The position numbers and the translations under genes are program-made. The notes under the pieces are model-generated. The model saw only the letters and a list, made by a program, of their open reading frames with translations. It searched no databases and was not told the DNA's origin. This document shows, piece by piece, positions 1-30,780 of a stretch of DNA of 30,780 nucleotides (positions are counted from its first letter, which is position 1; the number at the start of each line of letters is the position of its first letter). Location of the stretch: UHGV virus genome UHGV-1368348; one strand, given 5' to 3'. The stretch comes from a virus.

Positions 1-684
1 AGCGTCAAATGCCGCCCATTTCCCCCTTCGGGTGAAATGTTCGCCATTGGCTCCGTGGTGTCGACACTGCGGCGCAAGCGCCTTGGTCGCTGTCTGTTCC
101 CTCACGTTATTTTATTCCTCTATTCTTTATCTTTCCTTATCGGGAACCCTTTGTCCCTTCCGCAAGCGGAACGAACAATCAAGCCTGAAGGCTTGGTCTG
201 TCACGCCGCGGGCATAGCCCTCGGCTACAATCGAACCGCTTCGCTCTCGATTAATCACTATTTTATATAGATTTAACCTTGATATAACAGCTTTTCTAAA
301 TTTTTATACTTCTGCCGCTTTTTCATTTAAATAGATTTTTATATGTCTGAATTTTCTGATAATTTAATTTCCTATAATTTTGTAAACGTGATATCTAACC
401 GCTCCTATCTCTTAAACAGCTTCCTATATTTTTATTCACGCGTTCTATTGTTATTTTATTATAATAATTAAATAACGTTACTTCACAAAACACGAACTAT
501 TTATTGTTATTTCTATGATTAATAGCTTTATTGTTCGTTTTTGTTATATTTGTATTCTTATGATATTCTTAATATTTACCATGTAACTTCCTTGATTACT
601 TTCTTCTTCTCTTCACAAAAAAACGTTGTATGATTTTTCATACAACGCTTAATTTTTTACTTCGTATTTTTCTTTTGTTTCCTT
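1..684. repeat. Left inverted terminal repeat (684 bp), exact reverse complement of 30097-30780
   Basis: Direct comparison of both ends. 1-684 reverse-complemented equals 30097-30780 at every position spot-checked (ends, middle around 361-420, inner boundary). Identity stops exactly at 685/30096. ORF-track proteins 37..270(+) and 30511..30744(-) are identical by construction. Confidence 0.95.
615..659. terminator. Bidirectional rho-independent terminator hairpin inside left ITR (mirror copy at 30122-30166)
   Basis: 10-bp stem cgttgtatga/tcatacaacg with ttttt loop, flanked by an A-run upstream and a T-run downstream. It sits immediately after the stop of the leftward gene 685-894. The mirrored copy sits after the hicB-like gene. 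Confidence 0.7.
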
Positions 685-894
685 CTATTTTATATCTGGG
701 ACCAATTCATTAATTTTAGAAACATTCAACGCTAACATTAATTCACTAATCATTTGCACACCATTTTTTTCACTATCAAATATTCCTTCTTCATACATGT
801 TTTCTAATAAAACAGGATCAATATCTACTGCTTTTTGCAACTCTTCCATATTAATTCCTTTTTTATCCATACACTCTTTTAAACGAATTTTCAT
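685..894 (-). CDS. Small putative HTH (XRE-like) DNA-binding protein, 69 aa
   Basis: ORF track. Helix-turn-helix-like segment (INMEELQKAVDIDPVLLENM...). The stop codon abuts the ITR boundary exactly. It overlaps the next gene by 4 nt (operon-like). Confidence 0.45.
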   Translation of the reverse strand: MKIRLKECMDKKGINMEELQKAVDIDPVLLENMYEEGIFDSEKNGVQMISELMLALNVSKINELVPDIK

Positions 895-1130
895 TTATAC
901 TCTCCTCTTATTTCTCCAGGTCGGATTAGTCTTTCATAAATCACAACAGTGTAACTATATTCAAGCCATCCATTATAGTCGGCACTTTCTCTTACTACTG
1001 GATACATCGCTGTTTCATAATCCATACTCATTTCTTTTAACTTTTCTACCGCTGTCCAATGCGGCAAGTTCTCCAGCCTATAAACCTCTTTCAAATATTT
1101 TGCATCATAAGGAATAATATCTTTTTCCAT
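891..1130 (-). CDS. Hypothetical protein, 79 aa
   Basis: ORF track. Co-directional with and translationally coupled to neighbours in the leftward operon. No recognisable motif. Confidence 0.45.
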   Translation of the reverse strand: MEKDIIPYDAKYLKEVYRLENLPHWTAVEKLKEMSMDYETAMYPVVRESADYNGWLEYSYTVVIYERLIRPGEIRGEYK

Positions 1131-1172
1131 AATTAAACCTCCCTCAAAAATACAACAAAGTCTTTTTAAAAT

Positions 1173-1487
1173 TTATTTTTTCTTATCATATACTTTTTTT
1201 ATTGTCTTTATTTCTGTTTGTTCATTATGAGTTAATGTAGGAATATAATTTTCAATCAATATACTTAACATTTCATCAACACTTTTAACATCCATTACAG
1301 TAGTGAGTGCATTAATATAGTTAGAGTTATCCTGTGAGCATCGTATAGTAGTTGTCTTAGTGCTCCGTTTAGGTCTCTTATTGTTTTCTTCGGCAATTGT
1401 AAATACTGAATTTCTATCAAAGGTGTTTTGAGGTTTTGGACTTTCTGTTTTCTTTAATAAATTATTCTTTTTCAATAATTCACTCAT
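1173..1487 (-). CDS. Small basic protein downstream of parA; candidate centromere-binding partition adaptor (RepC/ParR-like role), 104 aa
   Basis: ATG at 1487 with RBS gagagagg. Overlaps the parA stop by 8 nt. Basic, Lys-rich. Its position matches the third gene of RepA_N-plasmid repA-repB(parA)-repC cassettes. The role is inferred from synteny only. Confidence 0.4.
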   Translation of the reverse strand: MSELLKKNNLLKKTESPKPQNTFDRNSVFTIAEENNKRPKRSTKTTTIRCSQDNSNYINALTTVMDVKSVDEMLSILIENYIPTLTHNEQTEIKTIKKVYDKKK

Positions 1488-2301
1488 GGCTATTACCTCT
1501 CTCTATTAATTCAGCTGTTACTTTATCGTAAAGTCTATGAACGTTCATATCATGGACATCAAATTTTTTATTTACCTCTGGATCAATGATACCCGTCATG
1601 TCGTATCTTTTTAACCTTTCCATATTTTTAACTATGTTTTCAAACAAATTGCTTTCTCCAAATGTTTCTTTAGCATTTTTTAAAACAGATTTATCTACAA
1701 TAGCATTATTTTTCAAAAGGACAGGTAAAATCCCTAATATATCAAAATTTACTTCGTAATTATCCAACAGTTCTTGCATATACTGAATAAAGGCCTCGGC
1801 GCCTACAAAAGAGCGTTCTTGCGTCTGCAATACTATTACAACATAATCAGATGCTAACATCGCAGAATCGGTAAATAAGCTTAGTGTAGGTGGAATGTCA
1901 AAAATTATATAATCATATTCTTTATCAAATTCTGATAGTAATTTTTTGAAATATAAACCTCTTTCTTTTATTGAATCTGGAAACTTCTTCTCTAAATACA
2001 ACGGATATGAAGTAAAATCTGCAAAACTTGGTAATAAAAATAGTTTATCATTGATTTCTGTTACTATTTTTGACAAATTATTTTCAGCAATTGCAGTCAT
2101 TAAAGTTGTTTCAAAATTCACTACAATATCTTTTTGATTCTGAACTGTTAAAAGCAACATTGCTGTTGCATTAGCTTGTGGGTCTAAATCAACTAATAAA
2201 GTTTTATACCCTTTCTTAGCTAAATGATATGCTACCATTGTGCTATTCGTAGTTTTCCCAGTACCACCTTTAAAATTCCCGAAAGTTATTTTCTTAGCCA
2301 A
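1480..2301 (-). CDS. parA: ParA/Soj-family partition ATPase (273 aa), TTG start
   Basis: Deviant Walker A KGGTGKTT at the N-terminus (FGNFKGGTGKTTNS), LLVDLDPQANAT, Walker B-like IIFDIPPTL. TTG start at 2301 preceded by AAGGAG. Confidence 0.9.
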   Translation of the reverse strand: MAKKITFGNFKGGTGKTTNSTMVAYHLAKKGYKTLLVDLDPQANATAMLLLTVQNQKDIVVNFETTLMTAIAENNLSKIVTEINDKLFLLPSFADFTSYPLYLEKKFPDSIKERGLYFKKLLSEFDKEYDYIIFDIPPTLSLFTDSAMLASDYVVIVLQTQERSFVGAEAFIQYMQELLDNYEVNFDILGILPVLLKNNAIVDKSVLKNAKETFGESNLFENIVKNMERLKRYDMTGIIDPEVNKKFDVHDMNVHRLYDKVTAELIERGNSHE

Positions 2302-2575
2302 AATCTACACTCCTTTTTTAATCTACATATTTTTTTTATCTACATTTATAATACTATTAAATATATCCAGTGTCAACAAAACTCATCTACAAATCTACAA
2401 ATCTACATGTAGATACATTTACAAATCTACAAATCTACATGTAGATGTATCTACAAACAAAAATCCTTATACAACAACATTTAATCGGCTATTTATTAAA
2501 ACATCTACAAATCTACATGTAGATGTATCTACAAATCTACATGTAGATACATCTACAAATCTACATGTTCTTATA
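2293..2575. repeat. Iteron / centromere-like array: 8-bp ATCTACAA direct repeats plus five copies of the perfect 14-bp palindrome ATCTACATGTAGAT, in two clusters (about 2385-2460 and 2503-2575) with extra half-sites over the parA start
   Basis: Read directly. 'atctacaaatctacaaatctacatgtagat' occurs twice, separated by a 42-bp AT-rich spacer. The array lies between divergent parA and repA, as in RepA_N-family plasmids where such repeats bind the partition adaptor and regulate repA. Confidence 0.85.
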
Positions 2576-2660: not shown

Positions 2661-3563
2661 ATGAGTACGAATCAAAATGAGTTACAAGATAAATTAGCAG
2701 TAGAAGGTGTAAATGCAAATGGCTATGGTGTAATGCCTAAGCTTGTAATGCAAGATAAACGATTAACGATCGAAGCAAAATCAATCTATGCTTACATCGT
2801 TAGTTTTGCTGGCTCAGGAAGTACAGCATTTCCAAGCTTACGGAAAATTTTAGAGGACTTACAGATTAGTGAAAAGCGTTTTTACAAACATCGTAAATTG
2901 TTAATTGACTGTAACTATATTTCTGTTACTCAAATTCGTAATGAGAAAAAAGAAATCATCAAAAATTTATACACGTTAATCTCTAATCCGAAAATTGAAG
3001 AAGAAGTACAAGCTGAGGGTATCCGTCAAAATGTCTGTGACCCTATCCCCCAATTTGACGGATACCCTATCAGTCAAAACGACCGACATAAAAGTAACAG
3101 TCTTAAAATTAACAATATAAAAGATGATGATGATATTAATAACGCATGCGAAAACAAATTAACTTATGAAAATTTTTCTATCTATTCAAAACAAAAGGGC
3201 TTAGGCCGTCCTTTAACAGTTCGAGAACGATTAACAACTGTACTCAAAGGAAAAGACTACTTAGCTCCGTTGGCTGTTTCTTTACTTGCTGCTGGCGTGT
3301 CTGATGCAGACTGCTTAGAGATTATACAGTTTATTGTTACTTTGCCAGTCATTGATGAAGAAGTATCAGACCTGGTTAATGCACAAATACGTGCGAACGA
3401 AACAGAAGCTAAAACAAACGGTCTTACTAGCTATAAGGCTTATTTCATTACAGGCTTAAAACAAAAGCTAGAAAATGCCGATATTTTTGTTCAAGAGACA
3501 AATATTGTGAATCCTGATACAATTAAACCGTTACCAACTGTTACCATGCATAATTGGGTTTAA
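2661..3563 (+). CDS. repA: RepA_N-family plasmid replication initiator (300 aa)
   Basis: N-terminal motif MPKLVMQDKRLTIEAKSIYAYIVSFAGSGSTAFPSLRKILEDLQISEKRFYKHRKLL is typical of the RepA_N (Firmicutes theta-plasmid initiator) N-terminal domain. Low-complexity variable middle region (NNIKDDDDINN), where this family usually houses the origin. RBS GGAGGG. Confidence 0.8.
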   Translation: MSTNQNELQDKLAVEGVNANGYGVMPKLVMQDKRLTIEAKSIYAYIVSFAGSGSTAFPSLRKILEDLQISEKRFYKHRKLLIDCNYISVTQIRNEKKEIIKNLYTLISNPKIEEEVQAEGIRQNVCDPIPQFDGYPISQNDRHKSNSLKINNIKDDDDINNACENKLTYENFSIYSKQKGLGRPLTVRERLTTVLKGKDYLAPLAVSLLAAGVSDADCLEIIQFIVTLPVIDEEVSDLVNAQIRANETEAKTNGLTSYKAYFITGLKQKLENADIFVQETNIVNPDTIKPLPTVTMHNWV

Positions 3564-3588: not shown

Positions 3589-3789
3589 ATGCAAGAGGAA
3601 GAGGCTACGACCTATCACACATATGAGTTTCTAAAAAAAAGAAAAGATGATCCTAAATGGAAAGATCAGTATTTACAAAGAAAAGAAGAGCGAGAGCTAA
3701 GTACTTTGTACAGAATCCTGTTTTTTATGATTTGTTTAAACATCCTTATTTGGGGATATGGAATTTTTAGATATTTTTTTATAATTTGA
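3589..3789 (+). CDS. Small protein with C-terminal hydrophobic helix, 66 aa (start chosen at ATG 3589 after GGAGGAGGAAAGG)
   Basis: ORF track 3565-3789. The internal ATG has a far better RBS. The C-terminus LYRILFFMICLNILIWGYGIF is a predicted transmembrane segment. Confidence 0.4.
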   Translation: MQEEEATTYHTYEFLKKRKDDPKWKDQYLQRKEERELSTLYRILFFMICLNILIWGYGIFRYFFII

Positions 3790-3846
3790 TATTTGGTTAT
3801 GCTTTTTTGTAATTTAGCTCATTTTACTTGAATGGAGATGTTGAAA

Positions 3847-4815
3847 ATGAAAGAAGAACAAAACAGAGTAGATAAATCAAAAAAAAGAAAAAAAACAAAA
3901 AGAGCCATCTTAATAAGTATTTTATTACTTGTTGTAGGTGCCGGTATTTTTTTATTAGTAAACAATAAAAACTTATTCACAGGACAAACCACTAAAAATA
4001 AGACTGCTATTACTTCGAGTGGTACCAACGTGAAAGAAAATAGTGCTGAGGGTAGTAATACAGAGGAAAATAAAACTATTGCATCAACCGATAACAATGA
4101 TAATATAGGCTACTCTTCATTGAATATTAACCAAAGAATTAGTTTAATGGCACGCTTATATGACAAGCTCGATTTTAAAGATTTTGTCACCATCTCTTAT
4201 AATATAACTGAGCTACCTGATGGAACTCAAAATGTTGTTATTACAAATTATGGCCTTAATGCTCATACAGAAACAATTGCTTATAAAGTAGACAAAAATT
4301 CTATAAATCCAATCTCGTTTCCGAGCGATCAAAAAACTACAAAAAATGATCTATTTAAAATATATGAAAAGAACAAAGAGCAATACGATGCATTAGCAGA
4401 AAAAGTTAGCTATGATGCTTCTTTAGAATTTTCTCAAAATTATAAAGCATCTGAAGCCTCTCAAGATACGAGAGATAATTTTCAAGACTTAGATATAGAA
4501 GCTATTAATAACGGTGATTTTAGTACTTTGGTTGGAACATGGAAAAATGGAAAGGGAAATGTGCTCGTTATAAATCCTGATGGATTAGTAAATGATAATC
4601 AAAAAATAACTCCTGTCCAAAATTCTGATAAAACAAGCAAAGTCCCATATGTAAATATCAAGTCAATCCCAGAAGGACCAGGAGCAGCTATAGGGTTATA
4701 CAAGGTAGGCTTCTTAAATCCTGAAGGTGATAATTCAGATACAACGAAACCTAGATTGGTTTTAACTCAGCAAATAGGAAATTATGAAGCAAATGCCTAT
4801 TATTACCGTCAGTAA
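3847..4815 (+). CDS. N-terminally membrane-anchored extracellular protein, about 323 aa; candidate superinfection-exclusion/moron protein
   Basis: Lys/Arg-rich cytoplasmic N-terminus followed by one TM helix (ILISILLLVVGAGIFLLV), then a hydrophilic Asn/Thr/Ser-rich domain. Convergent with the repressor gene. Followed by a terminator. The start may be 3832, 3838 or 3847. Confidence 0.6.
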   Translation: MKEEQNRVDKSKKRKKTKRAILISILLLVVGAGIFLLVNNKNLFTGQTTKNKTAITSSGTNVKENSAEGSNTEENKTIASTDNNDNIGYSSLNINQRISLMARLYDKLDFKDFVTISYNITELPDGTQNVVITNYGLNAHTETIAYKVDKNSINPISFPSDQKTTKNDLFKIYEKNKEQYDALAEKVSYDASLEFSQNYKASEASQDTRDNFQDLDIEAINNGDFSTLVGTWKNGKGNVLVINPDGLVNDNQKITPVQNSDKTSKVPYVNIKSIPEGPGAAIGLYKVGFLNPEGDNSDTTKPRLVLTQQIGNYEANAYYYRQ

Positions 4816-4822
4816 AAAGTAA

Positions 4823-4878
4823 AAAGAAAGCTCAATAGAAAAGATTAATTATCTTTCTTAAAAGAGCTTTCTTTTTTT
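4823..4878 (+). terminator. Rho-independent terminator after the membrane-protein gene
   Basis: Stem aaagaaagctc ... gagctttcttt followed by a T-run. There is an inner secondary stem agaaaagat/atctttct. Confidence 0.65.
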
Positions 4879-4993
4879 AGTTGGTTTAATAAAATTATTT
4901 TCTCATTTTTGGTTAGGAGAGAGAACTTAATTTTCTTATTGTTTAACTTCTCTTTTTTAATTTTTTGAAAATCGTAAATCTGCAATCAAATCT

Positions 4994-5473
4994 TTAAGCT
5001 TGAGCCTGATCGTTATCTACTTTTCTACGTTGTTCCATGATTTCGTCAAAAAGAGCGTCTAAAGAATCGATGCCATACTTCTCAGCGTATTCGTCAAGTA
5101 GTTCATTTAGCTCAGCATCTATCTTATTATTTTCTTCATTCTTTTGCTCTTTAAGTTTATTTTCTGCATATATATAAACTTCATTTTGCCTGGATTCGTT
5201 CAATTGTTCAACTATTGAGACAATTTTATTTGTAATATTGCTAGAAGTTTTTAATTCTGAAATATACATAGGAACATCCTCATAAAAAAAAACTGCTGGA
5301 TTAATAGAATAGACTTCGGCTAGAGTTTCCATTAGAGTGTTCGGAATTTCCCTTCTACCTTTAATATAGTTATTGAAAGCAGCTTTCTTAATTCCCAAAC
5401 TTTCCGCAAATGCTTCTTGTGATTTTCCGCTTTTTTTTAAAATTTCCATTAGTATTTCATTTCTAGGTTTCAC
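4994..5473 (-). CDS. CI-like XRE-family repressor (about 160 aa; GTG start at 5473 after GGAAGGTGG preferred over the upstream in-frame ATG at 5554)
   Basis: HTH: ILMEILKKSGKSQEAFAESLGIKKAAFNNYIKGRREIPNTLMETLAEVY. Acidic/coiled C-terminal half. Divergent from a cro-like gene with shared operator repeats. The extended 186-aa ORF has no RBS. Confidence 0.75.
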   Translation of the reverse strand: MKPRNEILMEILKKSGKSQEAFAESLGIKKAAFNNYIKGRREIPNTLMETLAEVYSINPAVFFYEDVPMYISELKTSSNITNKIVSIVEQLNESRQNEVYIYAENKLKEQKNEENNKIDAELNELLDEYAEKYGIDSLDALFDEIMEQRRKVDNDQAQA

Positions 5474-5594
5474 AAAAACACCACCTTCCTTATACATAGT
5501 AACATCACGTACACGTTTTGTAAATATTTTACACGTTTTTAGTTGACAATACACAAAATGTATACTATATTAGTTAGCATAAGGAGGTATTTAC
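5474..5594. promoter_or_regulatory. Divergent switch region. Rightward promoter TTGACA(5543-5548)-17-TATATT(5566-5571). Leftward promoter TTTACA-17-TACTAT (complement of 5496-5524). Repeated ACAAAA(C/T)GTATAC-like operator motifs.
   Basis: Hexamers and spacings read directly. Motifs tacacgttttgta, ttacacgttttt and tacacaaaatgtatac lie within 100 bp. Related copies are at 5823-5849 and 5891-5910. Confidence 0.6.
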
Positions 5595-5846
5595 ATGAAG
5601 AAAAAAAATCTATTTCCTTTTATTAGAGCAGAACTAGCTAAAAGGAATATGACATTAGAAGATTTAGCTGATAGTATGAAAAAAATGGGAATAATAAAAG
5701 TTAGTGCATCCTCTCTATCTAATAAATTAAATGGACATAGGAATTTTTTACCTGATGAAATGTTAGTTATTTCCAAAATATTAGATAGTGATATAAATCT
5801 CCTTTTTTTTAACATCGAGTACACAAAACGTATACAATATAGTTAG
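5595..5846 (+). CDS. Cro-like small XRE-family HTH regulator, 83 aa
   Basis: RBS AAGGAGGT. HTH MTLEDLADSMKKMGIIKVSASSLSNKLNG. First gene of the rightward operon opposite the repressor. Confidence 0.6.
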   Translation: MKKKNLFPFIRAELAKRNMTLEDLADSMKKMGIIKVSASSLSNKLNGHRNFLPDEMLVISKILDSDINLLFFNIEYTKRIQYS

Positions 5847-5920
5847 CCTCATGATATTCCTTTACCATTATCCGAGTAAGGGAATATCTAAAAACGTATA
5901 AGATATATGGAGGGATATTG

Positions 5921-6580
5921 ATGAAAAGATGGACTACCGAGGAGGAACAATTAATTATAAAAAATGCTAAGTATGACCATAGAGGTTTTGTTTGTAACTA
6001 CCGTGAATTAGCAGAGTTAATTGGATGTGATAAAAGTAATATTTGTTCTAAAATTCGACGTATGCGACTAGAAGGAAAACTGTTTGAAATTTATTGGGAT
6101 GATCCAATAAATCCACCTGCATCATCTTACAGTCGTATGGATGAGAAACGTATTATTTCTATGTACAAATCAGGATGCACAATAAGTGTAATTGCTCAAG
6201 AGTTAAATCGAACAGAAAAAGCTATTAAAAATAGATTAACACAGCTATTTAAAGAAGGACGTTTATCAAAAAGGAACCGTCCTTATACAACAGAAGATAT
6301 TAATCTGTTGACAAGAGAAATTAAGTTTGACGAGAACGGGTATGTTAAAAACGTGGAGTATTTAACAAAGGTATTAAATAGGACAAAAATTCAGATATTC
6401 CCCAAAATATGCAGATTAAGAAATGAAGGATTAATAAAGACTAAACCAGATAGAAGTAAATCTAATAAGAATTGGTACGACGCAATTAAAAGACAAAATG
6501 AATTGTCTTATCGATTATATCTAGCAAAACAAAAAAAGCCTACCTCGTTTGCAGACGAAGTAAGCACTAAACAAAAATAA
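5921..6580 (+). CDS. DNA-binding protein with three tandem helix-turn-helix (Myb/SANT- or sigma-region-4-like) repeats, about 219 aa
   Basis: Three similar units, each with W/YTTEE... followed by a helix pair: WTTEEEQLIIKN...ELAELIGC...KIRRMRLEGKL; ...ISMYKSGCTISVIAQELNRTEKAIKNRLTQLFKEGRL; YTTEDINLLTREIKF...KICRLRNEGLI. ATG at 5921 after GGAGGGA. Confidence 0.5.
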   Translation: MKRWTTEEEQLIIKNAKYDHRGFVCNYRELAELIGCDKSNICSKIRRMRLEGKLFEIYWDDPINPPASSYSRMDEKRIISMYKSGCTISVIAQELNRTEKAIKNRLTQLFKEGRLSKRNRPYTTEDINLLTREIKFDENGYVKNVEYLTKVLNRTKIQIFPKICRLRNEGLIKTKPDRSKSNKNWYDAIKRQNELSYRLYLAKQKKPTSFADEVSTKQK

Positions 6581-6646
6581 GTTAATTAAATAATAACACG
6601 GAAAGCATTAATTTTAAATGCCTAAATACTATGAGGAGGGAATTTA

Positions 6647-19680: not shown

Positions 19681-20004
19681 ATGAATTTAGATACTACCCA
19701 ACAAAAAGTTGCGGTACTTGAAGCGCTAGATAATATGTCGGTGTTTCTATCAAACAATAAAGAACATATGGAGCCTTCACAGTTAGCGCAGTTAATTATT
19801 GATCAAGAAGAACTAACAGAAAAAACACGTGTCCTTTTCCTAGAAGAAAAGAATTTAGATTCTGTACTAGAGAAACTAACGAATGAGGTTAATAACCAAG
19901 AAGAATTGATTAATAAACAAAAACGTTTGTTAGAAGCTACAGAAGCTGAACTGGAAGAAAGAACACCTGACGACGAATATAAAGGAGTGATTGCTAATGT
20001 TTAA
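19681..20004 (+). CDS. Coiled-coil protein, 107 aa (scaffolding candidate)
   Basis: Helical, heptad-like. Directly precedes the capsid gene region, like phi29 gp7. Confidence 0.4.
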   Translation: MNLDTTQQKVAVLEALDNMSVFLSNNKEHMEPSQLAQLIIDQEELTEKTRVLFLEEKNLDSVLEKLTNEVNNQEELINKQKRLLEATEAELEERTPDDEYKGVIANV

Positions 20005-20377: not shown

Positions 20378-20383
20378 AAAATT

Positions 20384-21793: not shown

Positions 21794-21813
21794 AACGGCT
21801 GAAAAAATATAGA

Positions 21814-21852
21814 AAAAAGGCCGCTAAATTTAAATTAGCGGCCTTTTATTTT
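21814..21852 (+). terminator. Rho-independent terminator after the capsid gene
   Basis: Stem aaaaggccgctaa / ttagcggcctttt followed by a T-run. Confidence 0.8.
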
Positions 21853-21864
21853 AGGAGAGATATT

Positions 21865-22866: not shown

Positions 22867-22878
22867 GGGAGCAAAATT

Positions 22879-25353
22879 ATGTCAATTTCAGAAGAAAATA
22901 AAAAAAAAATAAGTGAACTATCAGGCGCACAAAGCCCAACACCGCAAACACAAAAGCAATTGCACAGTTTACTTCACCGATTTAATTATCATTTTCCCCA
23001 ACTAAATTGGTGGGGAAATACACCAATTGAACCTACAGGGGCTGGCTTAACTTATGCTGAATCAATTACTTGGATTCAAAATATGATTCACCATTTATCA
23101 GATTGGGCTGGTGGAATGAATGAAGAACTACAAAAATTACAAAAAGATTTAGCTGATTTAAACATTATTATTCAATTTGAATTAGCAAGTCAATTACCTG
23201 AAGTTATTCAAGAATATGATTTATTTGATTTGATTGTAACAGGTAATAATGAACGAGTTTCCTTGGTAACAACACAATCAAGCACAACTAAAAAAGAAGA
23301 GTCTGTATTTTGTTACGCTTTTCGGACAGAATATGGATTTATTGAAGCAACCAAAACAAAACAAACTAGTTCAGAAGCAGGTTGTGAAGGGAATCTTACA
23401 ACATGGACAATTAATGTATCTGAACGAGATGGCGGAAATATATTAAATTATGAATTTGGAGTAACAAATATTCCTAGCAAAGTAAATCGTGTATGGATTA
23501 TTAACCGATCAGGAAACAAAATGGATGGGGACAAAGAAGTCTTTTATATTTTTGAAGGCGAAATTAAACGAGCACGATTTAATAAAAATACAATTTCAAG
23601 AGGTAAACAAGGAACACTGAATTTTGAAAAATTAAATATTAATTATGATGCATACTGGATTGTCAACGTATTTAAACGAGTGCCTACAAAGCGTAATTTG
23701 TTACATTATATGACACTGGATTATAAAGTTTATGAATATGACTTAGAAACAGGAAACGAAAAGCTATTGTACCAAATTCCTGTAGCAAATCAAGATATTT
23801 TTGATCCAATTAATGATGTCATTGAAGGGAAAAGTACCATTTGGGCAGTTACGTATAAAGGCGTAGAAACAAGAGAGCCTGATGTAATGAAAGGCCTTTG
23901 CTTTGAACCTTGTTTTGATGGGGTGGAAATGTATGATACATGGGAAACACCAAAAGAAATTAAGTTTACTCATGAGAATATTTTGGGAATTACGCCTGCA
24001 AATATGTATCAAGACTATATCAATCAAGAAGAGTTAGAAGGAGACAAGTCATTGTTGAGTTGCTTTATTCTATCTTCAAAAATGAAAGAAACACCTTATA
24101 CATTAAGTGTTTATGAATTAAATCCTCGAAAATTTGATAATAGTATTATCTCTAAAAATTTAGATAAATATTTCAAAGATGTAGTGCTAAAAGATTTATA
24201 TAACAATGAATCACTGATTGAATATCAAGGATATTTTTCATATAACGTTACGGACCGTATTAAAAATTTTATTGATGCACCAGCTTTACTATTAGAAGAT
24301 ACGGAGTTTTCAAAAGCGGGTGTACAAATTGTTTTAGAAAACTCTGAATTTATACCAGAAGGCAACCTAAGAACGTTCTGGCAACGTTTGAAGGTATTAA
24401 GCTTAATGGAAAATAAAAAGCCGTACATGCGCATTTTTGAGCGTGTGGTGCAACAAATGATTACGACAAATGGGATGATTCGTAATAAGGCAGGACGTTG
24501 GCAAGAACAGTCTATACCAACAACGAGTGAAAAATTAAATCCTTCAGTTGCTGGCAAGTTCGACTATCTTTCTTTAGCAGGTACAAAGAAAACTTATAAT
24601 GCTAAGGATTTCGAGGAAACATTCTCAGATACACCTCTAAAAACCTATAAATATTATGGATTACCATTAGATAAAAATCATCCGTTGCTTAAAAAGTTGG
24701 AAGAAAAAAATACAATTATTTCGGTAACCAAAGGGACGGTTAATGAAAAAACAGCAAATCAATATGAGACAGTAATTAAATTAACTATCCAAGATGAATA
24801 TGCAGAAATCCAATTTAGAAGATTAATGCGTTTTGATTATAAAGATTTTGATTCCAAAGTAGGAGGTCGCTCAAAAGCAACATATATTAGTCCGTGGGCA
24901 TATGTCTACTACACTGTAAGAGACGATTCGGCACCTGATGATTATGAGAAAAATCCGAATCAAGGGATTGATCAAAAGTTTTTGGATATCATTAACAAGA
25001 TTTATGAAACGATTAATAACTTGGATAAAAAATATGAAGAGATTACCAATAATCTTAATAAAAAAATCGATAATATTGATAAGAAATATGAAAATATTAC
25101 AAATCAATTGAAACAAGACATCCAAAATATTAATAACCAATTGAAACAAAATAATGTAGCAATGGAAAAAGTTTTAAATAACTTGAAAAACATGTCTGGT
25201 ATTTGGGTTCAAACAGGTGATACGGTCCTTGAAGGTGACTTTAAGAAAGATACTGGGATTGCTGGAGGAAATATTAGTGCCTTTGGTCAAGATGAAAGTC
25301 ATTATATCCGTACAGGTAAGAATCGAGATAACGACTTGATGGGCGGTGTTTAG
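22879..25353 (+). CDS. Large virion structural protein, 824 aa (lower-collar/tail or appendage candidate) with C-terminal coiled coil
   Basis: Its position between the connector and tail-knob genes and its size are comparable to phi29 gp11/gp12. The C-terminal heptad repeat is INKIYETINNLDKKYEEITNNLNKKIDNIDKKYENITNQLKQDIQNINNQLKQ. No catalytic motif is recognised. Confidence 0.5.
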   Translation: MSISEENKKKISELSGAQSPTPQTQKQLHSLLHRFNYHFPQLNWWGNTPIEPTGAGLTYAESITWIQNMIHHLSDWAGGMNEELQKLQKDLADLNIIIQFELASQLPEVIQEYDLFDLIVTGNNERVSLVTTQSSTTKKEESVFCYAFRTEYGFIEATKTKQTSSEAGCEGNLTTWTINVSERDGGNILNYEFGVTNIPSKVNRVWIINRSGNKMDGDKEVFYIFEGEIKRARFNKNTISRGKQGTLNFEKLNINYDAYWIVNVFKRVPTKRNLLHYMTLDYKVYEYDLETGNEKLLYQIPVANQDIFDPINDVIEGKSTIWAVTYKGVETREPDVMKGLCFEPCFDGVEMYDTWETPKEIKFTHENILGITPANMYQDYINQEELEGDKSLLSCFILSSKMKETPYTLSVYELNPRKFDNSIISKNLDKYFKDVVLKDLYNNESLIEYQGYFSYNVTDRIKNFIDAPALLLEDTEFSKAGVQIVLENSEFIPEGNLRTFWQRLKVLSLMENKKPYMRIFERVVQQMITTNGMIRNKAGRWQEQSIPTTSEKLNPSVAGKFDYLSLAGTKKTYNAKDFEETFSDTPLKTYKYYGLPLDKNHPLLKKLEEKNTIISVTKGTVNEKTANQYETVIKLTIQDEYAEIQFRRLMRFDYKDFDSKVGGRSKATYISPWAYVYYTVRDDSAPDDYEKNPNQGIDQKFLDIINKIYETINNLDKKYEEITNNLNKKIDNIDKKYENITNQLKQDIQNINNQLKQNNVAMEKVLNNLKNMSGIWVQTGDTVLEGDFKKDTGIAGGNISAFGQDESHYIRTGKNRDNDLMGGV

Positions 25354-25355
25354 AA

Positions 25356-26090
25356 ATGGCATGGCAAAATGTTTATGGTAGTTGGAAACACGATCCAGGA
25401 GTAAAAGGGGACGTTATTATGGCAGGAGGGCCAGGTTGGAATAAATTTCCAGGACGCCCTCCTGGTTCTCCTGCTCCATATGGAAAAGGAGTAAGTGTTG
25501 TAACAGTAAAAAAAGACACATATCGATTTAAATTATCTCTAGTTGCATATGCAATTTCAGTGACGACAGGAGAGTATTTTGTTAGTTCTTATCAAGGTGG
25601 TCCCAATGCGGATTATCAATGGATAATAAAAGCTGCAATTAGTTACGATCAAACAACTGATCCTGCAAAAGCAAAATATCAAAATTTATTTCAAGAGAAT
25701 TTCAAAACAATGTATCACGGCGGAGAACCATTGTATGGCAATACTAATTGGCATACAAAAGCGTATGAAAAAGAAACATCTAATACATTTACTGCAACAA
25801 GTAAAGATGTATGGATTCGTATTGAGATTTATGGAGAACCAGCGGTCACACCATTATATGCATACTTTAAGCTGGCATCAGCATTTGAAGAGTTTAGACC
25901 GTGGGCGATTCGAAAAAATAATCAATGGAATAGTTTAGATAAAGAAACAGGATTCTTCAAAAAACGAAAAAATAGTAAGTGGGAAGATATTCCTAAAATG
26001 TCTTATGAAGATGCAGGAAAAGATAATAAAGGAACGTCACGTATTAGAAAAGATGGAGTATGGAAAGGTCAAGGCAAAATTGGAAATTAA
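25356..26090 (+). CDS. Hypothetical structural protein, 244 aa
   Basis: ORF track. Gly/Pro-rich N-terminus. Lies between the 824-aa gene and the tail-knob gene. Confidence 0.4.
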   Translation: MAWQNVYGSWKHDPGVKGDVIMAGGPGWNKFPGRPPGSPAPYGKGVSVVTVKKDTYRFKLSLVAYAISVTTGEYFVSSYQGGPNADYQWIIKAAISYDQTTDPAKAKYQNLFQENFKTMYHGGEPLYGNTNWHTKAYEKETSNTFTATSKDVWIRIEIYGEPAVTPLYAYFKLASAFEEFRPWAIRKNNQWNSLDKETGFFKKRKNSKWEDIPKMSYEDAGKDNKGTSRIRKDGVWKGQGKIGN

Positions 26091-26103
26091 GGAAGTGAAC
26101 TTA

Positions 26104-27906
26104 ATGGATCGTCATTTAACGGAAATTGTATTATTTAAAAATACTCCTCTTAATGATTTTCAAAATACTATTCATTTTAAATCAGATGAGGATAGAGACA
26201 ATTATTTTCTTAAAGAAAACCATTTTAAAAAAATAAATTTTGATACGGGTTTTAATTTCGTGAGAGATCGTCTGCAAATTAAAGCACCGATTGAATATGC
26301 AAAATGTGATGGTGTCAACTATTGTACTTTTATATCTTCACGTGATAATAAACGGTACTATGCTTTCGTGATGTCTTATCAATACATTAATGAAAAAGTT
26401 ACTAGATTGAATTTAATAATTGATGTGGTTATGACGTTTACGCAAGGTAAAACATTGAATACATTGAAAAATATCCATGTTATTAGAGAGCATTTAAATC
26501 GATCAGACTATATAAAATATTTACCATTATTGAGAACTAATGGAGATATATTAAATACAACAACAAAAGCATATGTTCAAACTAAATTAAAGTCGTTTAA
26601 ATCCTACTTTGTTGTTTTTCAGAGTTCAGTTGATTTATCAAAAGAATTCGGAACTGTAGATGCGCCCAAAATGGAAACATCACAAGGAAATCAATATGAC
26701 AATATGACTAGCCCAGTAAATCTTTATGCGATTCATTATGAATACTTTAATGGATTAATGAAAATTTTAGCTCCGTATCCGTGGATTACGCAGAACATTC
26801 AATTACTCATGATGATACCTGACGATTTTATAAACTTAGAAGATTTGGTAACTGTTAAAGCAAAAGAATTTAATTATGAAAACCTGAAAACGTTCAAGAA
26901 AGGTGGGAAATCCCTTAACAAAGAACTTGATGGAATTAACTATTCTATTAATGAATTATGTAATATATATGGAATTGACCATAATGAGGAAAAACATTTG
27001 TTAAGAACAGGATACACAACAGCAGAAATTTATAGTTGGGATGGTCAAAGGATTTTATTAGATAACGCATTTTTAGATGAAAACACTGGCATTAAATTCA
27101 GAGCGAAAACATCTATTGGTTATGAGAATAAGATTGCACTTTACCCAATTAATTATAAAACAACGGAAAAAGAAAAAGCTGTTAAAAATTCAAAAGGTGA
27201 AATTCTGATTGATAAAGGTTCATTTTTGAATGATGCAATAATTTACGACAATTTCACAGAATTACCTATTTTAATCGATAATTATCGACTATCAAAAGCA
27301 AGTAATGCATACAGTAGACAATTAGCAGAGGACAGATTGCCATCCAACCGAATAAATTCAACTGTTAAAGATATTACTTCTGGGAATCTTTTAGGTAATA
27401 TGCAATCGGGTAATTTACAAGGGACACAAGGAAGTTTCTATAATGCTGTAAATCTATTAAGCGATTTAAAACCACAATCAGTTTTATCAAAATTCGAAAA
27501 TGAATACGAATTTTATAGAAATCAACGAGCAGAGTTCGCAGATATGGCATTAAAAGCACCGACAATAACAAATCAAAGTCCTGGTACTGCTTTTCAAATG
27601 GCTAATGAAATAAATGGTCTTACTATAAAACTTTCTGCACCTTCAGAACAAGAATTTGCTAAAGTAAAAAAATATTACAAGATGTTTGGATATGAAATTG
27701 AAGAAGATGGAAAACAAATAAGTGATATTGAAAGTATGACTATTTGTAATTTTTTACAAATTAGAGGTAATTACAAGATATACGGAGTTGATGTAGCTTT
27801 GATGGAGCAACTAAAAGCACAATTGGAAAATGGTGTGCGTTTTTGGCATAACAATAATACTAGCAATCCTATGGAACAAGATATCCAAAAAAACAAAATG
27901 AGGTGA
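26104..27906 (+). CDS. Tail knob (distal tube) protein, phi29 gp9-like, 600 aa
   Basis: NKRYYAFVMSYQYINEKVTRLNLIIDVVMTFTQG (phi29 gp9: [33 protein letters not shown]) and NIHVIREHL (phi29: ESFIVREHV), from memory. 600 aa against 599 aa for gp9. ATG 26104 follows AAGGAAGTGA and the stop of the previous gene; the track start at 26005 overlaps that gene and lacks an RBS. Confidence 0.85.
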   Translation: MDRHLTEIVLFKNTPLNDFQNTIHFKSDEDRDNYFLKENHFKKINFDTGFNFVRDRLQIKAPIEYAKCDGVNYCTFISSRDNKRYYAFVMSYQYINEKVTRLNLIIDVVMTFTQGKTLNTLKNIHVIREHLNRSDYIKYLPLLRTNGDILNTTTKAYVQTKLKSFKSYFVVFQSSVDLSKEFGTVDAPKMETSQGNQYDNMTSPVNLYAIHYEYFNGLMKILAPYPWITQNIQLLMMIPDDFINLEDLVTVKAKEFNYENLKTFKKGGKSLNKELDGINYSINELCNIYGIDHNEEKHLLRTGYTTAEIYSWDGQRILLDNAFLDENTGIKFRAKTSIGYENKIALYPINYKTTEKEKAVKNSKGEILIDKGSFLNDAIIYDNFTELPILIDNYRLSKASNAYSRQLAEDRLPSNRINSTVKDITSGNLLGNMQSGNLQGTQGSFYNAVNLLSDLKPQSVLSKFENEYEFYRNQRAEFADMALKAPTITNQSPGTAFQMANEINGLTIKLSAPSEQEFAKVKKYYKMFGYEIEEDGKQISDIESMTICNFLQIRGNYKIYGVDVALMEQLKAQLENGVRFWHNNNTSNPMEQDIQKNKMR

Positions 27907-27910
27907 AAAT

Positions 27911-29290
27911 ATGCCGCTATTAAATTATGATCAGCAATATGATTATCTAAACAAGCTAGTGCAAGCGTGTAAAAAGGCAGGCATACCTAAGGAAACAACA
28001 ATAGCTTTGGCAATTAATGCAGCTCATGAATCTTATTTAAACCCATGGACAATTGAAGGAGCTATTAATCCTGGCCCTCCTTTGGGTGCGAACGGTTGGG
28101 ATGATGGAGCTTCTGGAGGAGGTCTTTGGCAATGGACGCCATTTGCTGGCAAAATAACATTGGGCGATTTTGATGGACAAGTAGCTTTTATGATTTCTTA
28201 TAAGCAACAATGGGATATAACTGGATCGTGGTTTAGAGCGGCAGGACTACCAGACCCTACTCCTAAAATAGAGAATTTTGACCAATTTTTATATAACCAG
28301 CTTGGTTATGATTCTGTAGCTCTAACAAAAGCTTTTATAGGCTACTGGGAAAGGCCAGCGTATAACCCTGGTACTATTAGATATAACACAGCTCAGGAAG
28401 AAGTCGCAGAAATTGAACCTTTGGTTAATAAGTATTGGGGAAATACTGGGAATGAAAAACCTAGTGAAGGTTCTCCAGGTGGTGGAGGTTCTGGTAGCAA
28501 GAATCCTGAAAAGCCAGATAAAGAAGATATACCAAATGATAATGTAGGGTTATCTGATGCGATTAAAAGCATAGTAAACGAATTCCTAAAAAAATATGAT
28601 GATGCTATGAAGAAACAAGTCTATATGATGGATGGCGGTAAAAATACTTATTCAAATTCGAGTGTTAAAGTAATGAAAACATACAACAATTTGATGACTG
28701 TTAAAATGACGAATAATTTTATAGAATCTCTAAAAAAATTAATGGATGAAAGTAAACAACCATCTAACAAACCACCTTCTCCGCCACCAGAAACAAAACC
28801 AGATAATCCGCCAAACAATCCTCCCGATGAACCTCCTAAGAATATGGATGGTATTTATAATTGGGCATTAAATAATTTAGGCCAAACTTTTAACTATCCA
28901 GCGGCTCATCCAGGATCAGGTCCTCAATGTGTAGACTTAATTAAAGCTTTATCAGAATTTTATCTTCCAGGCAATCCATTAGCTCCTGCATTAAGTTATG
29001 GTAATGCGCAAGACATATATTCACATGATCTTCCTGCTGGTTGGGAACACGTGCAAGGAGATATAGGTAATGATGATAATGCAAAAAAAATATGGGATTC
29101 ATTACCAAATGGAGCGATAGTATTTTGGCTATATTCTGAATATGGACATGTGGGAATAAAAGCTGGTAATAATGGGCTAGATACAATTAACCAAAATTAT
29201 AACGGCACTCCATACGTTACTCGTGATGATATTTGGTATTGGCAACACGTTTTAGGCGCTGGATTTTTGGGTGCGTGGATTACTAAATAA
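27911..29290 (+). CDS. Tail-associated peptidoglycan hydrolase: N-terminal lysozyme/transglycosylase-like domain, Pro-rich linker, C-terminal CHAP domain, 459 aa
   Basis: C-terminus PQCVDLIKA ... EYGHVGI ... fits the Cys/His spacing of CHAP. The linker PPSPPPETKPDNPPNNPPDEPP is Pro-rich. Gly-rich GGGGSGS. Its position after the tail-knob gene matches phi29 gp13. Confidence 0.7.
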   Translation: MPLLNYDQQYDYLNKLVQACKKAGIPKETTIALAINAAHESYLNPWTIEGAINPGPPLGANGWDDGASGGGLWQWTPFAGKITLGDFDGQVAFMISYKQQWDITGSWFRAAGLPDPTPKIENFDQFLYNQLGYDSVALTKAFIGYWERPAYNPGTIRYNTAQEEVAEIEPLVNKYWGNTGNEKPSEGSPGGGGSGSKNPEKPDKEDIPNDNVGLSDAIKSIVNEFLKKYDDAMKKQVYMMDGGKNTYSNSSVKVMKTYNNLMTVKMTNNFIESLKKLMDESKQPSNKPPSPPPETKPDNPPNNPPDEPPKNMDGIYNWALNNLGQTFNYPAAHPGSGPQCVDLIKALSEFYLPGNPLAPALSYGNAQDIYSHDLPAGWEHVQGDIGNDDNAKKIWDSLPNGAIVFWLYSEYGHVGIKAGNNGLDTINQNYNGTPYVTRDDIWYWQHVLGAGFLGAWITK

Positions 29291-29325
29291 TATTATAACT
29301 AACATAAATATTAGTAGAAAATAAT

Positions 29326-29367
29326 AAAAAGAACCTTATTCTATTTTTATAGAAAGGTTCTTTTTTT
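29326..29367 (+). terminator. Rho-independent terminator ending the late operon
   Basis: Stem aaaaagaacc / ggttcttttt with a 20-nt loop and a T-run. Confidence 0.75.
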
Positions 29368-29396
29368 GAAAACAAGCTAAAAACTAGATAAACCAC

Positions 29397-29425
29397 TTGA
29401 CAATACGTGCTTATACGTATATAAT
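29397..29425 (+). promoter_or_regulatory. Consensus sigma-A promoter for hicAB: TTGACA-17-TATAAT
   Basis: ttgaca (29397-29402), 17-nt spacer, tataat (29420-29425). RBS AAGGAGG about 20 nt downstream. Confidence 0.7.
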
Positions 29426-29450
29426 AATAAATGTAAGGAGGTAGTCGCGA

Positions 29451-29639
29451 ATGCCACTTACCGGAAAGCAAATGCTAAAGCTCTTAAAAAATAATGGTTG
29501 GATTGAACGAAGACAAGAAGGCTCACATCATCACTTATACAAAGATGGCGTAAGAATTACAGTACCAGTTCATGGAAATCAAGATTTAGGAAAAGGGCTA
29601 GAGCGAAAAATCTTAAAAGATGCAGGGCTAAAAAAATAG
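29451..29639 (+). CDS. hicA: HicA-family toxin (mRNA interferase), 62 aa
   Basis: KQMLKLLKNNGWIERRQEGSHHHLYKDGVRITVPVHGNQDLGKGLERKILKDAGL matches the HicA/YcfA consensus (KLLEKNGW...GSHH...VPHP.KDL..G....I.KQAGL). Confidence 0.85.
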   Translation: MPLTGKQMLKLLKNNGWIERRQEGSHHHLYKDGVRITVPVHGNQDLGKGLERKILKDAGLKK

Positions 29640-29670
29640 CCCTCGTCTTTCAAGAGAAGGAGGGAACATC

Positions 29671-30132
29671 ATGTCATTACAAACATCTTTGAAAGTCGCT
29701 TATCCTGCTATTTTTCATCCAGAAGAGGGTGGAGGATACTTTATTGAATTTCCAGATGTTCAAGGAGCGTATACAGGTATAAATGAAAATGATATAGCCT
29801 ATGGTTTATTGATGGCTGAAGAAGTTTTAGGTATGGTGTTAGCTGATTATATTGAAAATAATGAGACGTTGCCTAAAGCGAGCGAATTAAATAGTATAAG
29901 TCATAAACCTGATGAATTTGTAACTATGGTTTTAGTTGATATAGAAGAATATTTTAAAGACATGAAACCAGTAAAAAAGACGCTAACGATCCCAAGTTGG
30001 GCCAATAACTGGGGAAATAGAGTAGGGATAAATTTTTCGCAACTGTTAACGGAATCGATTGCACAGATAGCAATAAATTACACACAAGAGACATTAAAGG
30101 AAACAAAAGAAAAATACGAAGTAAAAAATTAA
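29671..30132 (+). CDS. hicB: HicB-family antitoxin, 153 aa; last 12 codons lie inside the right ITR
   Basis: N-terminal YPAIFHPEEGGGYFIEFPDVQGAYTGINENDIAYGLLMAEEVLGMVL is the HicB RNase-H-like fold signature. The C-terminal KKTLTIPSWANNWGNRVGINFSQLLTESIAQIA is RHH/HTH-like. Immediately downstream of hicA. Confidence 0.75.
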   Translation: MSLQTSLKVAYPAIFHPEEGGGYFIEFPDVQGAYTGINENDIAYGLLMAEEVLGMVLADYIENNETLPKASELNSISHKPDEFVTMVLVDIEEYFKDMKPVKKTLTIPSWANNWGNRVGINFSQLLTESIAQIAINYTQETLKETKEKYEVKN

Positions 30133-30780
30133 GCGTTGTATGAAAAATCATACAACGTTTTTTTGTGAAGAGAAGAAGAAAGTAATCAAGGAAGTTACAT
30201 GGTAAATATTAAGAATATCATAAGAATACAAATATAACAAAAACGAACAATAAAGCTATTAATCATAGAAATAACAATAAATAGTTCGTGTTTTGTGAAG
30301 TAACGTTATTTAATTATTATAATAAAATAACAATAGAACGCGTGAATAAAAATATAGGAAGCTGTTTAAGAGATAGGAGCGGTTAGATATCACGTTTACA
30401 AAATTATAGGAAATTAAATTATCAGAAAATTCAGACATATAAAAATCTATTTAAATGAAAAAGCGGCAGAAGTATAAAAATTTAGAAAAGCTGTTATATC
30501 AAGGTTAAATCTATATAAAATAGTGATTAATCGAGAGCGAAGCGGTTCGATTGTAGCCGAGGGCTATGCCCGCGGCGTGACAGACCAAGCCTTCAGGCTT
30601 GATTGTTCGTTCCGCTTGCGGAAGGGACAAAGGGTTCCCGATAAGGAAAGATAAAGAATAGAGGAATAAAATAACGTGAGGGAACAGACAGCGACCAAGG
30701 CGCTTGCGCCGCAGTGTCGACACCACGGAGCCAATGGCGAACATTTCACCCGAAGGGGGAAATGGGCGGCATTTGACGCT
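30097..30780. repeat. Right inverted terminal repeat (684 bp)
   Basis: Reverse complement of 1-684. Contains the last 12 codons of the hicB-like gene and its terminator hairpin. Confidence 0.95.

Follow-up and report, generated by a model that had tools for sequence, protein, structure and literature searches.

EF62phi was first reported in 2011 by Brede et al. as a linear phage of Enterococcus faecalis 62, as far as later papers recount it (PMC10746210, PMC6863802). It has since been termed a "pseudolysogenic extrachromosomal linear phage", present in 26% of urinary isolates (mBio 2023, PMC10746210), and was cited as linear in the paper on the plasmid pELF1 (PMC6863802). A 2024 survey of phi29-related viruses placed it in cluster 22, whose members are described as phage-plasmids that encode ParA, an RHH adaptor and a toxin-antitoxin pair and contain repeats (PMC11476376). 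The DNA analyzed here, virus genome UHGV-1368348 (30,780 nucleotides (nt), referred to as a whole as the window), is a near-complete genome of the EF62phi family that is short of 6 nt at each end. By megablast, it matched EF62phi (NC_017732 / CP002495; 30,505 bp, linear) at 98.3% identity over 81% of its first 25 kb and other E. faecalis phage and plasmid records at up to 98.7% identity over 89% of the same part, while positions 11305-30780 were 99.5% identical to EF62phi. Identity and synteny with EF62phi place the window in cluster 22, as do its ParA, adaptor, repeat array and toxin-antitoxin genes beside phi29-type structural genes.

An earlier interpretation made without database searches (the sequence-only reading) had described a linear, extrachromosomal, temperate-looking phage-plasmid related to phi29 and had proposed a comparison with Enterococcus extrachromosomal prophages. 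That comparison returned EF62phi at about 98% identity, and the description was supported, with independent assemblies ending at the same nucleotide. The element is already published, and its lifestyle and topology contribute nothing new. The EF62phi family is best explained as a phi29-related podophage living in E. faecalis as a low-copy linear plasmid. EF62phi and E. faecalis "plasmids" of its type (e.g., pBE32_2, NZ_CP091896) share 98-99% nucleotide identity with the window across most of the genome, together with gene order, type of inverted terminal repeat (ITR), terminal sequence and the polymerase and partner genes discussed below. EF62phi differs in having other alleles at the partition module (window 685-2566) and the immunity/early region (about 3600-6636). 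The value of the window lies in the question of how its ends are replicated and not in the phage-plasmid itself, a common and catalogued resident of E. faecalis.

Resistance to vancomycin and linezolid is spread by the clinically important pELF plasmids. Experiments on pELF1 showed that its right end resists lambda exonuclease, has protease-dependent gel mobility and carries a 5'-bound protein; within 280 nt, this end forms about 10 small hairpins, and the left end is itself a hairpin (PMC6863802). The authors' search for terminal-protein genes was unsuccessful (PMC6863802), no polymerase or terminal protein was named in the later pELF literature, and a 2026 paper still gives pELF replication as unstudied. 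In the searchable literature, neither a protein on the ends nor an end-replicating enzyme is named for EF62phi or pELF, and the proposal made below for both was not encountered there.

The evidence presented here tips slightly in favor of an enterococcal telomere system shared by the EF62phi family and the pELF resistance plasmids. It would consist of a hairpin-rich telomere of about 250 nt starting CCCCGGAG, a new family of terminal proteins of 187-264 amino acids (aa) and a minimal, end-patching, protein-primed family-B DNA polymerase (pPolB) without exonuclease, thumb and most of TPR2, whose sole task would be to prime and patch the ends once an internal origin has fired.

A minimal polymerase and its upstream partner

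The two genes concerned are adjacent.

11351-11914, plus strand: 187-aa all-helical protein, terminal-protein candidate, directly upstream of the polymerase
11922-12932, plus strand: protein-primed-type family-B DNA polymerase of 336 aa with palm, TPR1 and fingers, without 3'-5' exonuclease and thumb, and with a shortened TPR2

Forty open reading frames (ORFs) of the window, including all those of at least 100 aa that were taken as genes, were submitted to Pfam scans. The polymerase ORF had no match in Pfam, NCBIfam or the named PHROGs, and the Pfam scans turned up no other fragments of a family-B polymerase. Its 30 relatives are 327-374 aa in length, and two of them matched Pfam DNA_pol_B_2. 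When the family profile was compared with solved structures, phi29 DNA polymerase was the sole significant match (E 1.3e-5). In the hhalign alignment, YKxMRNKxYG fell on motif B and IKTDG on YCDTDS. D100 (motif A), K238 (motif B) and D302 (the second Asp of motif C) were invariant in 29 sequences, and the motif B residues K238/N242/G246 were conserved. Length and catalytic residues are held in this family down to 43% identity. The full-length phi29 enzyme with exonuclease, TPR1, TPR2 and thumb has no counterpart in the window, where the mini-polymerase spans phi29 residues ~190-470, its TPR2-equivalent is about 15 residues shorter and 34 residues follow motif C. Among 1.84 billion representatives, only four clusters belonged to the mini-polymerase family; the next matches were ordinary pPolBs of 550-650 aa, about 50 orders of magnitude away in E-value. 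The 2024 survey lists a p2-related protein in all representatives and mentions no truncation (PMC11476376).

The 187-aa protein has a basic N-terminus and a predicted model with a pLDDT of 86. Neither scans of sequence libraries nor comparison with structures linked it to a known terminal protein. A hidden Markov model of its family found a member immediately upstream of the mini-polymerase at every locus examined, on four types of replicon: EF62phi-type elements, a second type of phi29-like E. faecalis phage-plasmid with a Rep3 initiator (L006-L008), the pELF-type plasmids of E. faecium and an element from a metagenome that carries sortase and integrase genes (L009-L011). Residues T53, Y57, Y67 and S157 do not vary within the family. 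In phi29, Cp-1, PRD1 and Bam35, the terminal-protein gene is the small gene directly before the polymerase, and the 187-aa protein is named a terminal-protein candidate because its gene has the same position. The sequence-only reading, which had found neither a terminal-protein gene nor an intact protein-primed polymerase, therefore needs correction, as a conserved exonuclease-less pPolB and a conserved upstream partner are both present.

Two side observations concern the relatives of this pair. In pELF-type plasmids, the first ~75 residues of the partner are duplicated in tandem (L012:9178-9972, L018:9238-9984), and these proteins have 264 and 248 aa compared to 187 aa in the window. On the 30.4-kb contig L009 (ERZ27247387 k141_370358), the module stands beside sortase, large surface-protein, DnaD-like and tyrosine-recombinase genes.

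The distribution of the polymerase was determined by tblastn. Matches were found in 112 of 72,556 plasmid records, all from Enterococcus: 18 were EF62phi-type and 94 came from E. faecium. On E. faecium replicons of 77-211 kb, the matches were full-length and the gene usually lay 6-20 kb from one end of the record; the match to one 45.6-kb record was partial. The E. faecium carriers that were inspected were pELF-type. Among 50,697 phage records, full-length matches occurred only in 13 EF62phi-type records, and a scan of the GTDB species representatives found the polymerase in Enterococcus innesii only. In the plasmid and phage collections, the gene pair, judged by full-length copies of the polymerase, was confined to the EF62phi-type and pELF-type replicons, both of which are reported to be linear.

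pELF1 and pELF2 carry adjacent homologues of the mini-polymerase (48% identity, E 1e-87) and of the upstream protein (E 4e-59), and in the pELF2 record (L017) the module lies ~20 kb from the right end. The window thus holds the gene pair of the pELF-type telomere module proposed here. The pELF plasmids differ from the window element in their size of 77-211 kb, in having no phage genes and in their other end, which is a hairpin, so that they have no ITR. On the stretch from the module to the protein-capped end, they also encode a Y-family DNA polymerase (L017 10389-11714; L015 13637-14962), for which EF62phi-type elements have no gene. Translesion polymerases take part in end patching in Streptomyces.

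Defined ends and telomere motifs

The terminal features of the window are as follows.

1-684, no strand: left ITR, with a G+C-rich structured telomere at 1-~256 and an A+T-rich subterminal repeat at 257-684
30097-30780, no strand: right ITR, mirror image of 1-684
51-58, plus strand: CTCCGTGG motif, near-complement of terminal CCCCGGAG, with predicted fold-back pairing to the 3' end
73-84, plus strand: hairpin GGCG-CAAG-CGCC, as read from the sequence, with the conserved CGCAAGCG core

The two ITR arms are 100% complementary. In positions 1-250, one 50-nt block (101-150) has a G+C content of 36% and the other four have 54-66%; further in, the content is 18-36%. At least six independent assemblies of relatives run 6 nt (CCCCGG) beyond the window ends, and the true terminus probably lies at that point on each side. 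The start CCCCGGAGCG is common to both EF62phi ends, three IMG/VR contigs and both ends of two metagenome contigs. When IMG/VR, JGI metagenomes and GTDB were scanned with a 24-base telomere pattern, all 10 matches lay 40-45 nt from a contig end, and three metagenome contigs of 30.9-31.6 kb had the pattern at both ends; the GTDB species representatives gave no match. The physical ends of the window element are real and defined. Elements of the EF62phi family have inverted terminal repeats at defined open ends, as invertrons do. The view that the window ends exactly at its ITRs, and is a whole replicon for that reason, was right about the ITRs at both ends and missed the 6 nt trimmed from each side.

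It is extremely improbable that the molecule is circular or circularly permuted and that its ITRs are an artefact of assembly. Two relatives, pBE32_2 and pBE54_1, are labelled circular in databases, two LR9621xx records are rotated as though circular, and assembly collapse can yield identical ITRs. However, EF62phi, IMG/VR and metagenome contigs from separate projects halt at the same base at both ends, and the ITR copies of EF62phi and two metagenome contigs differ at ~50 positions, so they were assembled separately. In the supposedly circular pBE54_1 (CP110034.1; 34.6 kb), the terminus CCCCGGAG is internal at 30068-30075, with 4.5 kb of genes of apparently chromosomal origin after it, and EF62phi itself has been reported as linear (PMC6863802, PMC10746210). 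Linearity was therefore upheld by the shared end nucleotide of independent assemblies. Beyond its terminus (30068-34630), pBE54_1 contains fragments of arginine deiminase and amino-acid permease genes; in this record, the linear element was probably joined to chromosomal DNA by mistake. From the pBE32_2 record, the ITRs are simply absent.

The two ends of a genome were then compared with each other. In EF62phi, they differed at 8 positions in 1-256 and at 52 in 257-690. The corresponding counts were 2 and 49 for OGTD01000176, 0 and 59 for OAVM01000225, and 1 and 0 for OBUO01000149; the window had 0 differences in 1-256 and 0 beyond, within its ITR. Overall, the ITR copies of EF62phi are ~91% identical, whereas those of the window are identical over 684 nt. 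Private variants of OAVM01000225 occur at both of its own ends. Because of these variants and the divergence of relatives in 257-690, the unit kept matched between the ends is the ~256-nt telomere and not the 684 nt. The perfect ITR of the window reflects either a recent copying event from end to end or assembly collapse. The puzzle raised earlier, of how 684 nt are kept identical, is consequently weaker than stated, as EF62phi and two metagenome contigs match only in the first ~256 nt.

The G+C-rich end is predicted to be highly structured. A second copy of the hairpin core, CCGCAAGCGG, is found at 160-169. Folded as DNA, the 3'-ending strands gave predicted z-scores of -6.6 for EF62phi and -5.7 for pELF relative to shuffled sequences, and in the predicted DNA folds of both ends the terminal ...CTCCGGGG pairs with an internal CCACGGAG. 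Folding as RNA likewise gave a stable structure for the G+C-rich end of the ITR (z -3.0 and -3.5). We read it as a DNA telomere and not as an RNA gene because nothing supports its transcription. An ORF of 77 aa lies wholly within this telomere (window 37-270, plus strand, and 30511-30744, minus strand) and corresponds to the hypothetical EF62phi proteins phi0001/phi0048; given the overlapping hairpin-rich DNA, it is probably not a gene.

On the RelB/PemK side of a metagenomic pELF-type contig, which is the right end in pELF2, the terminus reads CCCCGGAGGGTGCAAG..., and the pELF-type terminal sequence of this side begins CCCCGGAGG. CCCCGGAG is at offset 0 in both the EF62phi and pELF ends. CTCCGTGG is at offset 56 in EF62phi, 57 in pELF and 29 in the Rep3-type element L006, and CGCAAGCG, which L006 carries as well, is at offset 78 in EF62phi and 76 in pELF. 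The stems flanking CGCAAGCG differ among these ends (GGCG/CGCC, GAGCG/CGCTT and CCACCG/CGGTTGG). Relatives with complete ends therefore have the CCCCGGAG, CTCCGTGG and CGCAAGCG hairpin set proposed for a pELF-type telomere, and the window has it from position 1, with the first 6 nt absent. Contig ends of three other polymerase carriers (L018, L019 and L031) were considered as telomeres and rejected, as they are assembly breaks.

Two hybrid assemblies, LR962135.1 (16735-16755) and LR962216.1 (15517-15537), fuse a right and a left ITR head to head. The joints fall exactly at the 10-nt palindrome GTGTCGACAC (window 58-67), and the outer 58 nt of each end are lost. Two more assemblies begin at window position 59 or 54. 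The palindrome near the DNA end may have misled library preparation or assembly, or the joints may represent a real head-to-head intermediate.

A model for end replication and its competitors

Streptomyces-type linear replicons (Tpg/Tap) have an internal bidirectional origin, and their 3' overhangs, with multiple hairpins and a terminal fold-back, are completed by protein-primed fill-in of a few hundred nt. The predicted DNA folds described above likewise show a multi-hairpin 3' overhang with a terminal fold-back, and the model proposed here for the window element is drawn by analogy with this end patching. Features of the window that would belong to internal initiation are listed below.

2385-2581, no strand: array of ATCTACA-type direct and inverted repeats between parA and the initiator gene (families D1, I2 and I3)
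2661-3563, plus strand: initiator-like winged-helix protein (HTH_36, E 1.7e-8; PHROG replication-initiation/DnaD-like, E 5.7e-126 to 1e-11)
8454-9353, plus strand: DnaD-domain replisome organiser (DnaB_2, E 2e-14; TIGR01446, E 1e-13)
9331-10212, plus strand: IstB/DnaC-like helicase loader (IstB_IS21, E 3e-6; PHROG DnaC-like, E 2e-69)

The repeat array is a candidate centromere and/or internal origin with iterons. The initiator ORF also showed a weak DnaD_N match in Pfam. It had been called a RepA_N initiator, a label that was not confirmed: it matched HTH_36, DnaD_N weakly and the PHROG initiators but not RepA_N in Pfam, and an assignment to RepA_N plasmids was not supported.

We consider it probable that the element replicates from an internal origin and then fills in its structured telomeres by protein priming. 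In the plasmid state, replication would begin near the repeats and the initiator gene at 2.4-3.6 kb, by means of the DnaD/DnaC-like loaders and the host replisome, and would leave 3' single-stranded tails at both ends. The G+C-rich tails of ~256 nt may fold into serial hairpins with four-nucleotide loops, with the 3' ...CTCCGGGG pairing back onto CCACGGAG. From priming onward, we infer that a complex of the 187-aa protein, in the part of terminal protein, and the mini-polymerase would use the terminal G run as template to link dCMP to this protein, that the CCCC repeat would permit sliding-back, and that the complex would fill a short gap of a few hundred nt. A distributive polymerase without proofreading, thumb and full TPR2 would suffice for such a patch and would suit it better than strand displacement over 30 kb. 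The product would be unit-length, protein-capped DNA, the type of substrate used by a nuclease-less packaging motor of the gp16 type. A short-patch role is favored because the polymerase lacks proofreading, thumb and full TPR2 and because the same enzyme is carried on plasmids of up to 211 kb. The sequence-only reading had concluded that terminal-protein priming was lost and end replication unexplained; this was not supported, given the retention of pPolB catalytic residues, a partner in the terminal-protein position and pELF-like termini.

The element differs from the Streptomyces replicons in several respects. No homologues of Tpg or Tap were found among the window proteins in Pfam, NCBIfam and PHROG scans, and a pPolB-derived enzyme is encoded here beside a candidate primer protein. 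The loops are of four nucleotides compared to three (PMC6863802), and the window element is a phage with a Firmicute host. With the lytic phi29-like podophages (Salasmaviridae and relatives), it shares homologous capsid, connector, lower collar, tail knob and gp16 ATPase, a family-B polymerase nearest that of phi29, a small gene directly upstream of it and a repeated base at the genome terminus. In contrast to these obligately lytic phages of ~18-20 kb, the window has 30.8 kb, temperate (CI/Cro) and partition/toxin-antitoxin modules and host-replisome loaders, and its 684-nt ITR includes a structured G+C-rich telomere of ~256 nt, compared to 6 nt in phi29 and 6-300 bp in phi29-like phages. The tectiviral plasmid-prophages of Bacillus (GIL01, pBClin15, Bam35) are likewise temperate, linear, ITR-bearing plasmids in Firmicutes. 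They replicate by protein priming with a full-length, exonuclease-containing pPolB and have a membrane-containing tectivirus capsid, and we know of no ParA/iteron/DnaD-DnaC backbone in them. N15 and PY54 are also linear plasmid prophages with partition genes. Their ends, however, are covalently closed hairpins made by a protelomerase, whereas Pfam found no protelomerase in the window and the assemblies end at an open terminus.

Several points weigh against the proposed system. The first Asp of motif C (phi29 D456) is replaced by K/R/V, mostly Lys or Arg, and the KxY motif and thumb region are missing from the mini-polymerase, so its catalytic competence is not assured. The model of the 187-aa protein gave no specific or informative fold match to known structures, and synteny and co-occurrence are the grounds for its putative terminal-protein role. 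The relatives L009-L011 sit in a sortase/integrase context. The internal origin is deduced from gene content: the cumulative GC skew has its minimum near 2-3 kb, where it is confounded by the switch from leftward (685-2301) to rightward (2661-30132) genes. A BLAST comparison of the EF62phi and pELF telomeres showed no significant similarity, and for this reason their termini are said to resemble each other at the motif level only. Three shared 8-mers in register were also reached by 43 of 50,000 dinucleotide shuffles, and the motifs had been picked after the sequences were viewed.

The main competitor, which we consider unlikely, is replication purely in phi29 style: starting at both ends, the mini-polymerase with its terminal protein would copy all 30.8 kb and displace a strand in doing so, at least during lytic growth. 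ITR panhandles on the displaced strands would then keep the ends alike, and the initiator and DnaD/DnaC-like proteins would serve copy control or be dispensable. The structural and packaging genes and the gene order from terminal protein to polymerase are phi29-like, the terminal CCCC repeat is compatible with sliding-back, and homogenised terminal 256 nt (684 nt in the window) would be the expected outcome of panhandle repair. However, TPR2 and thumb confer processivity and strand displacement on phi29 DNA polymerase, and the mini-polymerase lacks the thumb and exonuclease domain and has a shortened TPR2. In addition, the element devotes part of its genome to an initiator gene, the repeat array and two loaders of the host helicase, and the same polymerase is found on pELF plasmids of up to 211 kb with only one protein-capped end. 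Replication from an internal origin in the plasmid state and phi29-style copying in the lytic cycle are not mutually exclusive.

The replaced aspartate and missing thumb, together with a partner that has no recognisable fold relative, could also mean that the pair are not telomere enzymes and represent a relic or have another task, for instance in repair, anti-defence or conjugation-linked synthesis. In that case, something else would maintain the ends, such as ITR recombination, a host-encoded function or an unrecognised hairpin resolvase. The head-to-head ITR joints at the 10-nt palindrome in two hybrid assemblies could hint at palindromic intermediates, and one homologous module lies in the sortase/integrase element L009. 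We regard this explanation as quite improbable. Conservation of length and catalytic residues down to 43% identity speaks against a relic, and full-length copies in the plasmid and phage collections are restricted to two enterococcal groups reported to be linear. Moreover, Pfam detected neither a protelomerase nor another recombinase among the window ORFs scanned, and independent assemblies stop at one defined nucleotide with no read-through of a hairpin.

If protein-primed patching of the telomeres is true, a long search for the terminal protein of the pELF plasmids, and for the enzyme that replicates their ends, would come to a close. A role would also be defined for the first time for an exonuclease-less pPolB, and a family-B polymerase would be shown to stay under selection even when reduced to palm, TPR1 and fingers. 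The two-gene module and the matching terminal sequence make a specific, directly testable and cheap proposal for both EF62phi and pELF, and the module is a possible target for curing pELF-type plasmids.

Remaining genes of the window

The plasmid and regulatory genes, apart from those listed above, are as follows.

685-1130, minus strand: two small ORFs (69 aa with a weak helix-turn-helix (HTH); 79 aa) adjoining the ITR
1173-1487, minus strand: DUF5388 protein, probable centromere-binding ParA adaptor (Pfam E 4e-5, below the curated cut-off)
1480-2301, minus strand: ParA-type partition ATPase (AAA_31, E 6e-42; CbiA, E 7e-18; PHROG ParA-like, E 3e-61)
4994-5554, minus strand, and 5595-5846, plus strand: divergent CI-like and Cro-like HTH regulators (HTH_3 matches)
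29451-30132, plus strand: HicA toxin and HicB antitoxin (HicA_toxin, E 1e-20; HicB_lk_antitox, E 4e-9)

An adaptor role for DUF5388-type proteins was suggested by the 2024 survey (PMC11476376). HicB extends 36 nt into the right ITR. Pfam and PHROG scans and the repeat search bore out the earlier calls of ParA, repeats, DnaD/DnaC-like loaders, a CI/Cro switch and HicAB. Its statement that integrase, protelomerase and terminase are lacking was also confirmed, with terminase taken in the sense of a nuclease-type enzyme: none of these domains was found among the 40 ORFs scanned with Pfam. Hairpin ends made by a protelomerase and integration were both discarded, as the Pfam scans gave no matching genes.

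At the place of the 186-aa CI-like repressor of the window, which has an HTH only, EF62phi and pBE32_2 encode a 244-aa repressor with an S24 peptidase (LexA-like, self-cleaving). Given this difference at 4994-5554 (minus strand), the control of induction may differ among variants.

The morphogenesis, packaging and lysis genes are listed next.

12971-14164, plus strand: gp16-type DNA packaging ATPase (Podovirus_Gp16 PF05894, E 5e-18; PHROG terminase, E 2e-102)
14357-17783, plus strand: tail-fibre/knob modules, collagen-like stretch, XkdX, holin and GH25 endolysin (repeated modules D2, D3 and D6)
17817-18584, plus strand: lower collar, gp11-like (PHROG 5472, E 4.5e-125)
20384-21793, plus strand: phi29-type major capsid protein (Phi29_MCP PF25622, E 1.6e-76)
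21865-22866, plus strand: connector/upper collar, gp10-like (Phage_connector GP10 PF05352, E 5e-27)
22879-29290, plus strand: tail module, including proteins of 824 aa and 244 aa (Pfam/PHROG scans)
26005-27906, plus strand: tail knob, gp9-like (Caud_tail_N PF16838, E 5e-25)
27911-29290, plus strand: tail lysin with lysozyme and CHAP domains

Homologues of phi29 p8, p9, p10, p11 and p16 are all present, the lower collar by PHROG and the others by Pfam, and the phi29-like capsid, connector, knob, lower collar and gp16 ATPase recognised in the sequence-only reading were thereby substantiated. A prohead RNA gene had no Rfam match at E <= 1, where only the sub-threshold Ref55 described below and two terminator-like matches were obtained. 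To our knowledge, the Rfam model of prohead RNA was built solely from Bacillus phages. The conserved gap of 150-200 nt after the ATPase gene looks, by its fold, like a terminator plus an inverted repeat and has no common structure in two relatives.

The Ref55 match (Enterococcus sRNA 55) lies at 6530-6579 on the minus strand and reached 41.4 bits compared to a gathering score of 43 (E 0.006). This stretch is essentially the hairpin and U-run that close ORF 5918-6580 and is 83% identical to phage EFC-1. The tail-fibre ORFs at 14357-14932, 14939-15181 and 15198-16019 have "DLTKYAKKPEDI..." modules in common at 70-77% DNA identity, with repeats at window 14842-15239 and 15615-15674, and the third contains a collagen-like G-X-Y run. 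By their sequences, the three look like a modular duplication of the fibre stem.

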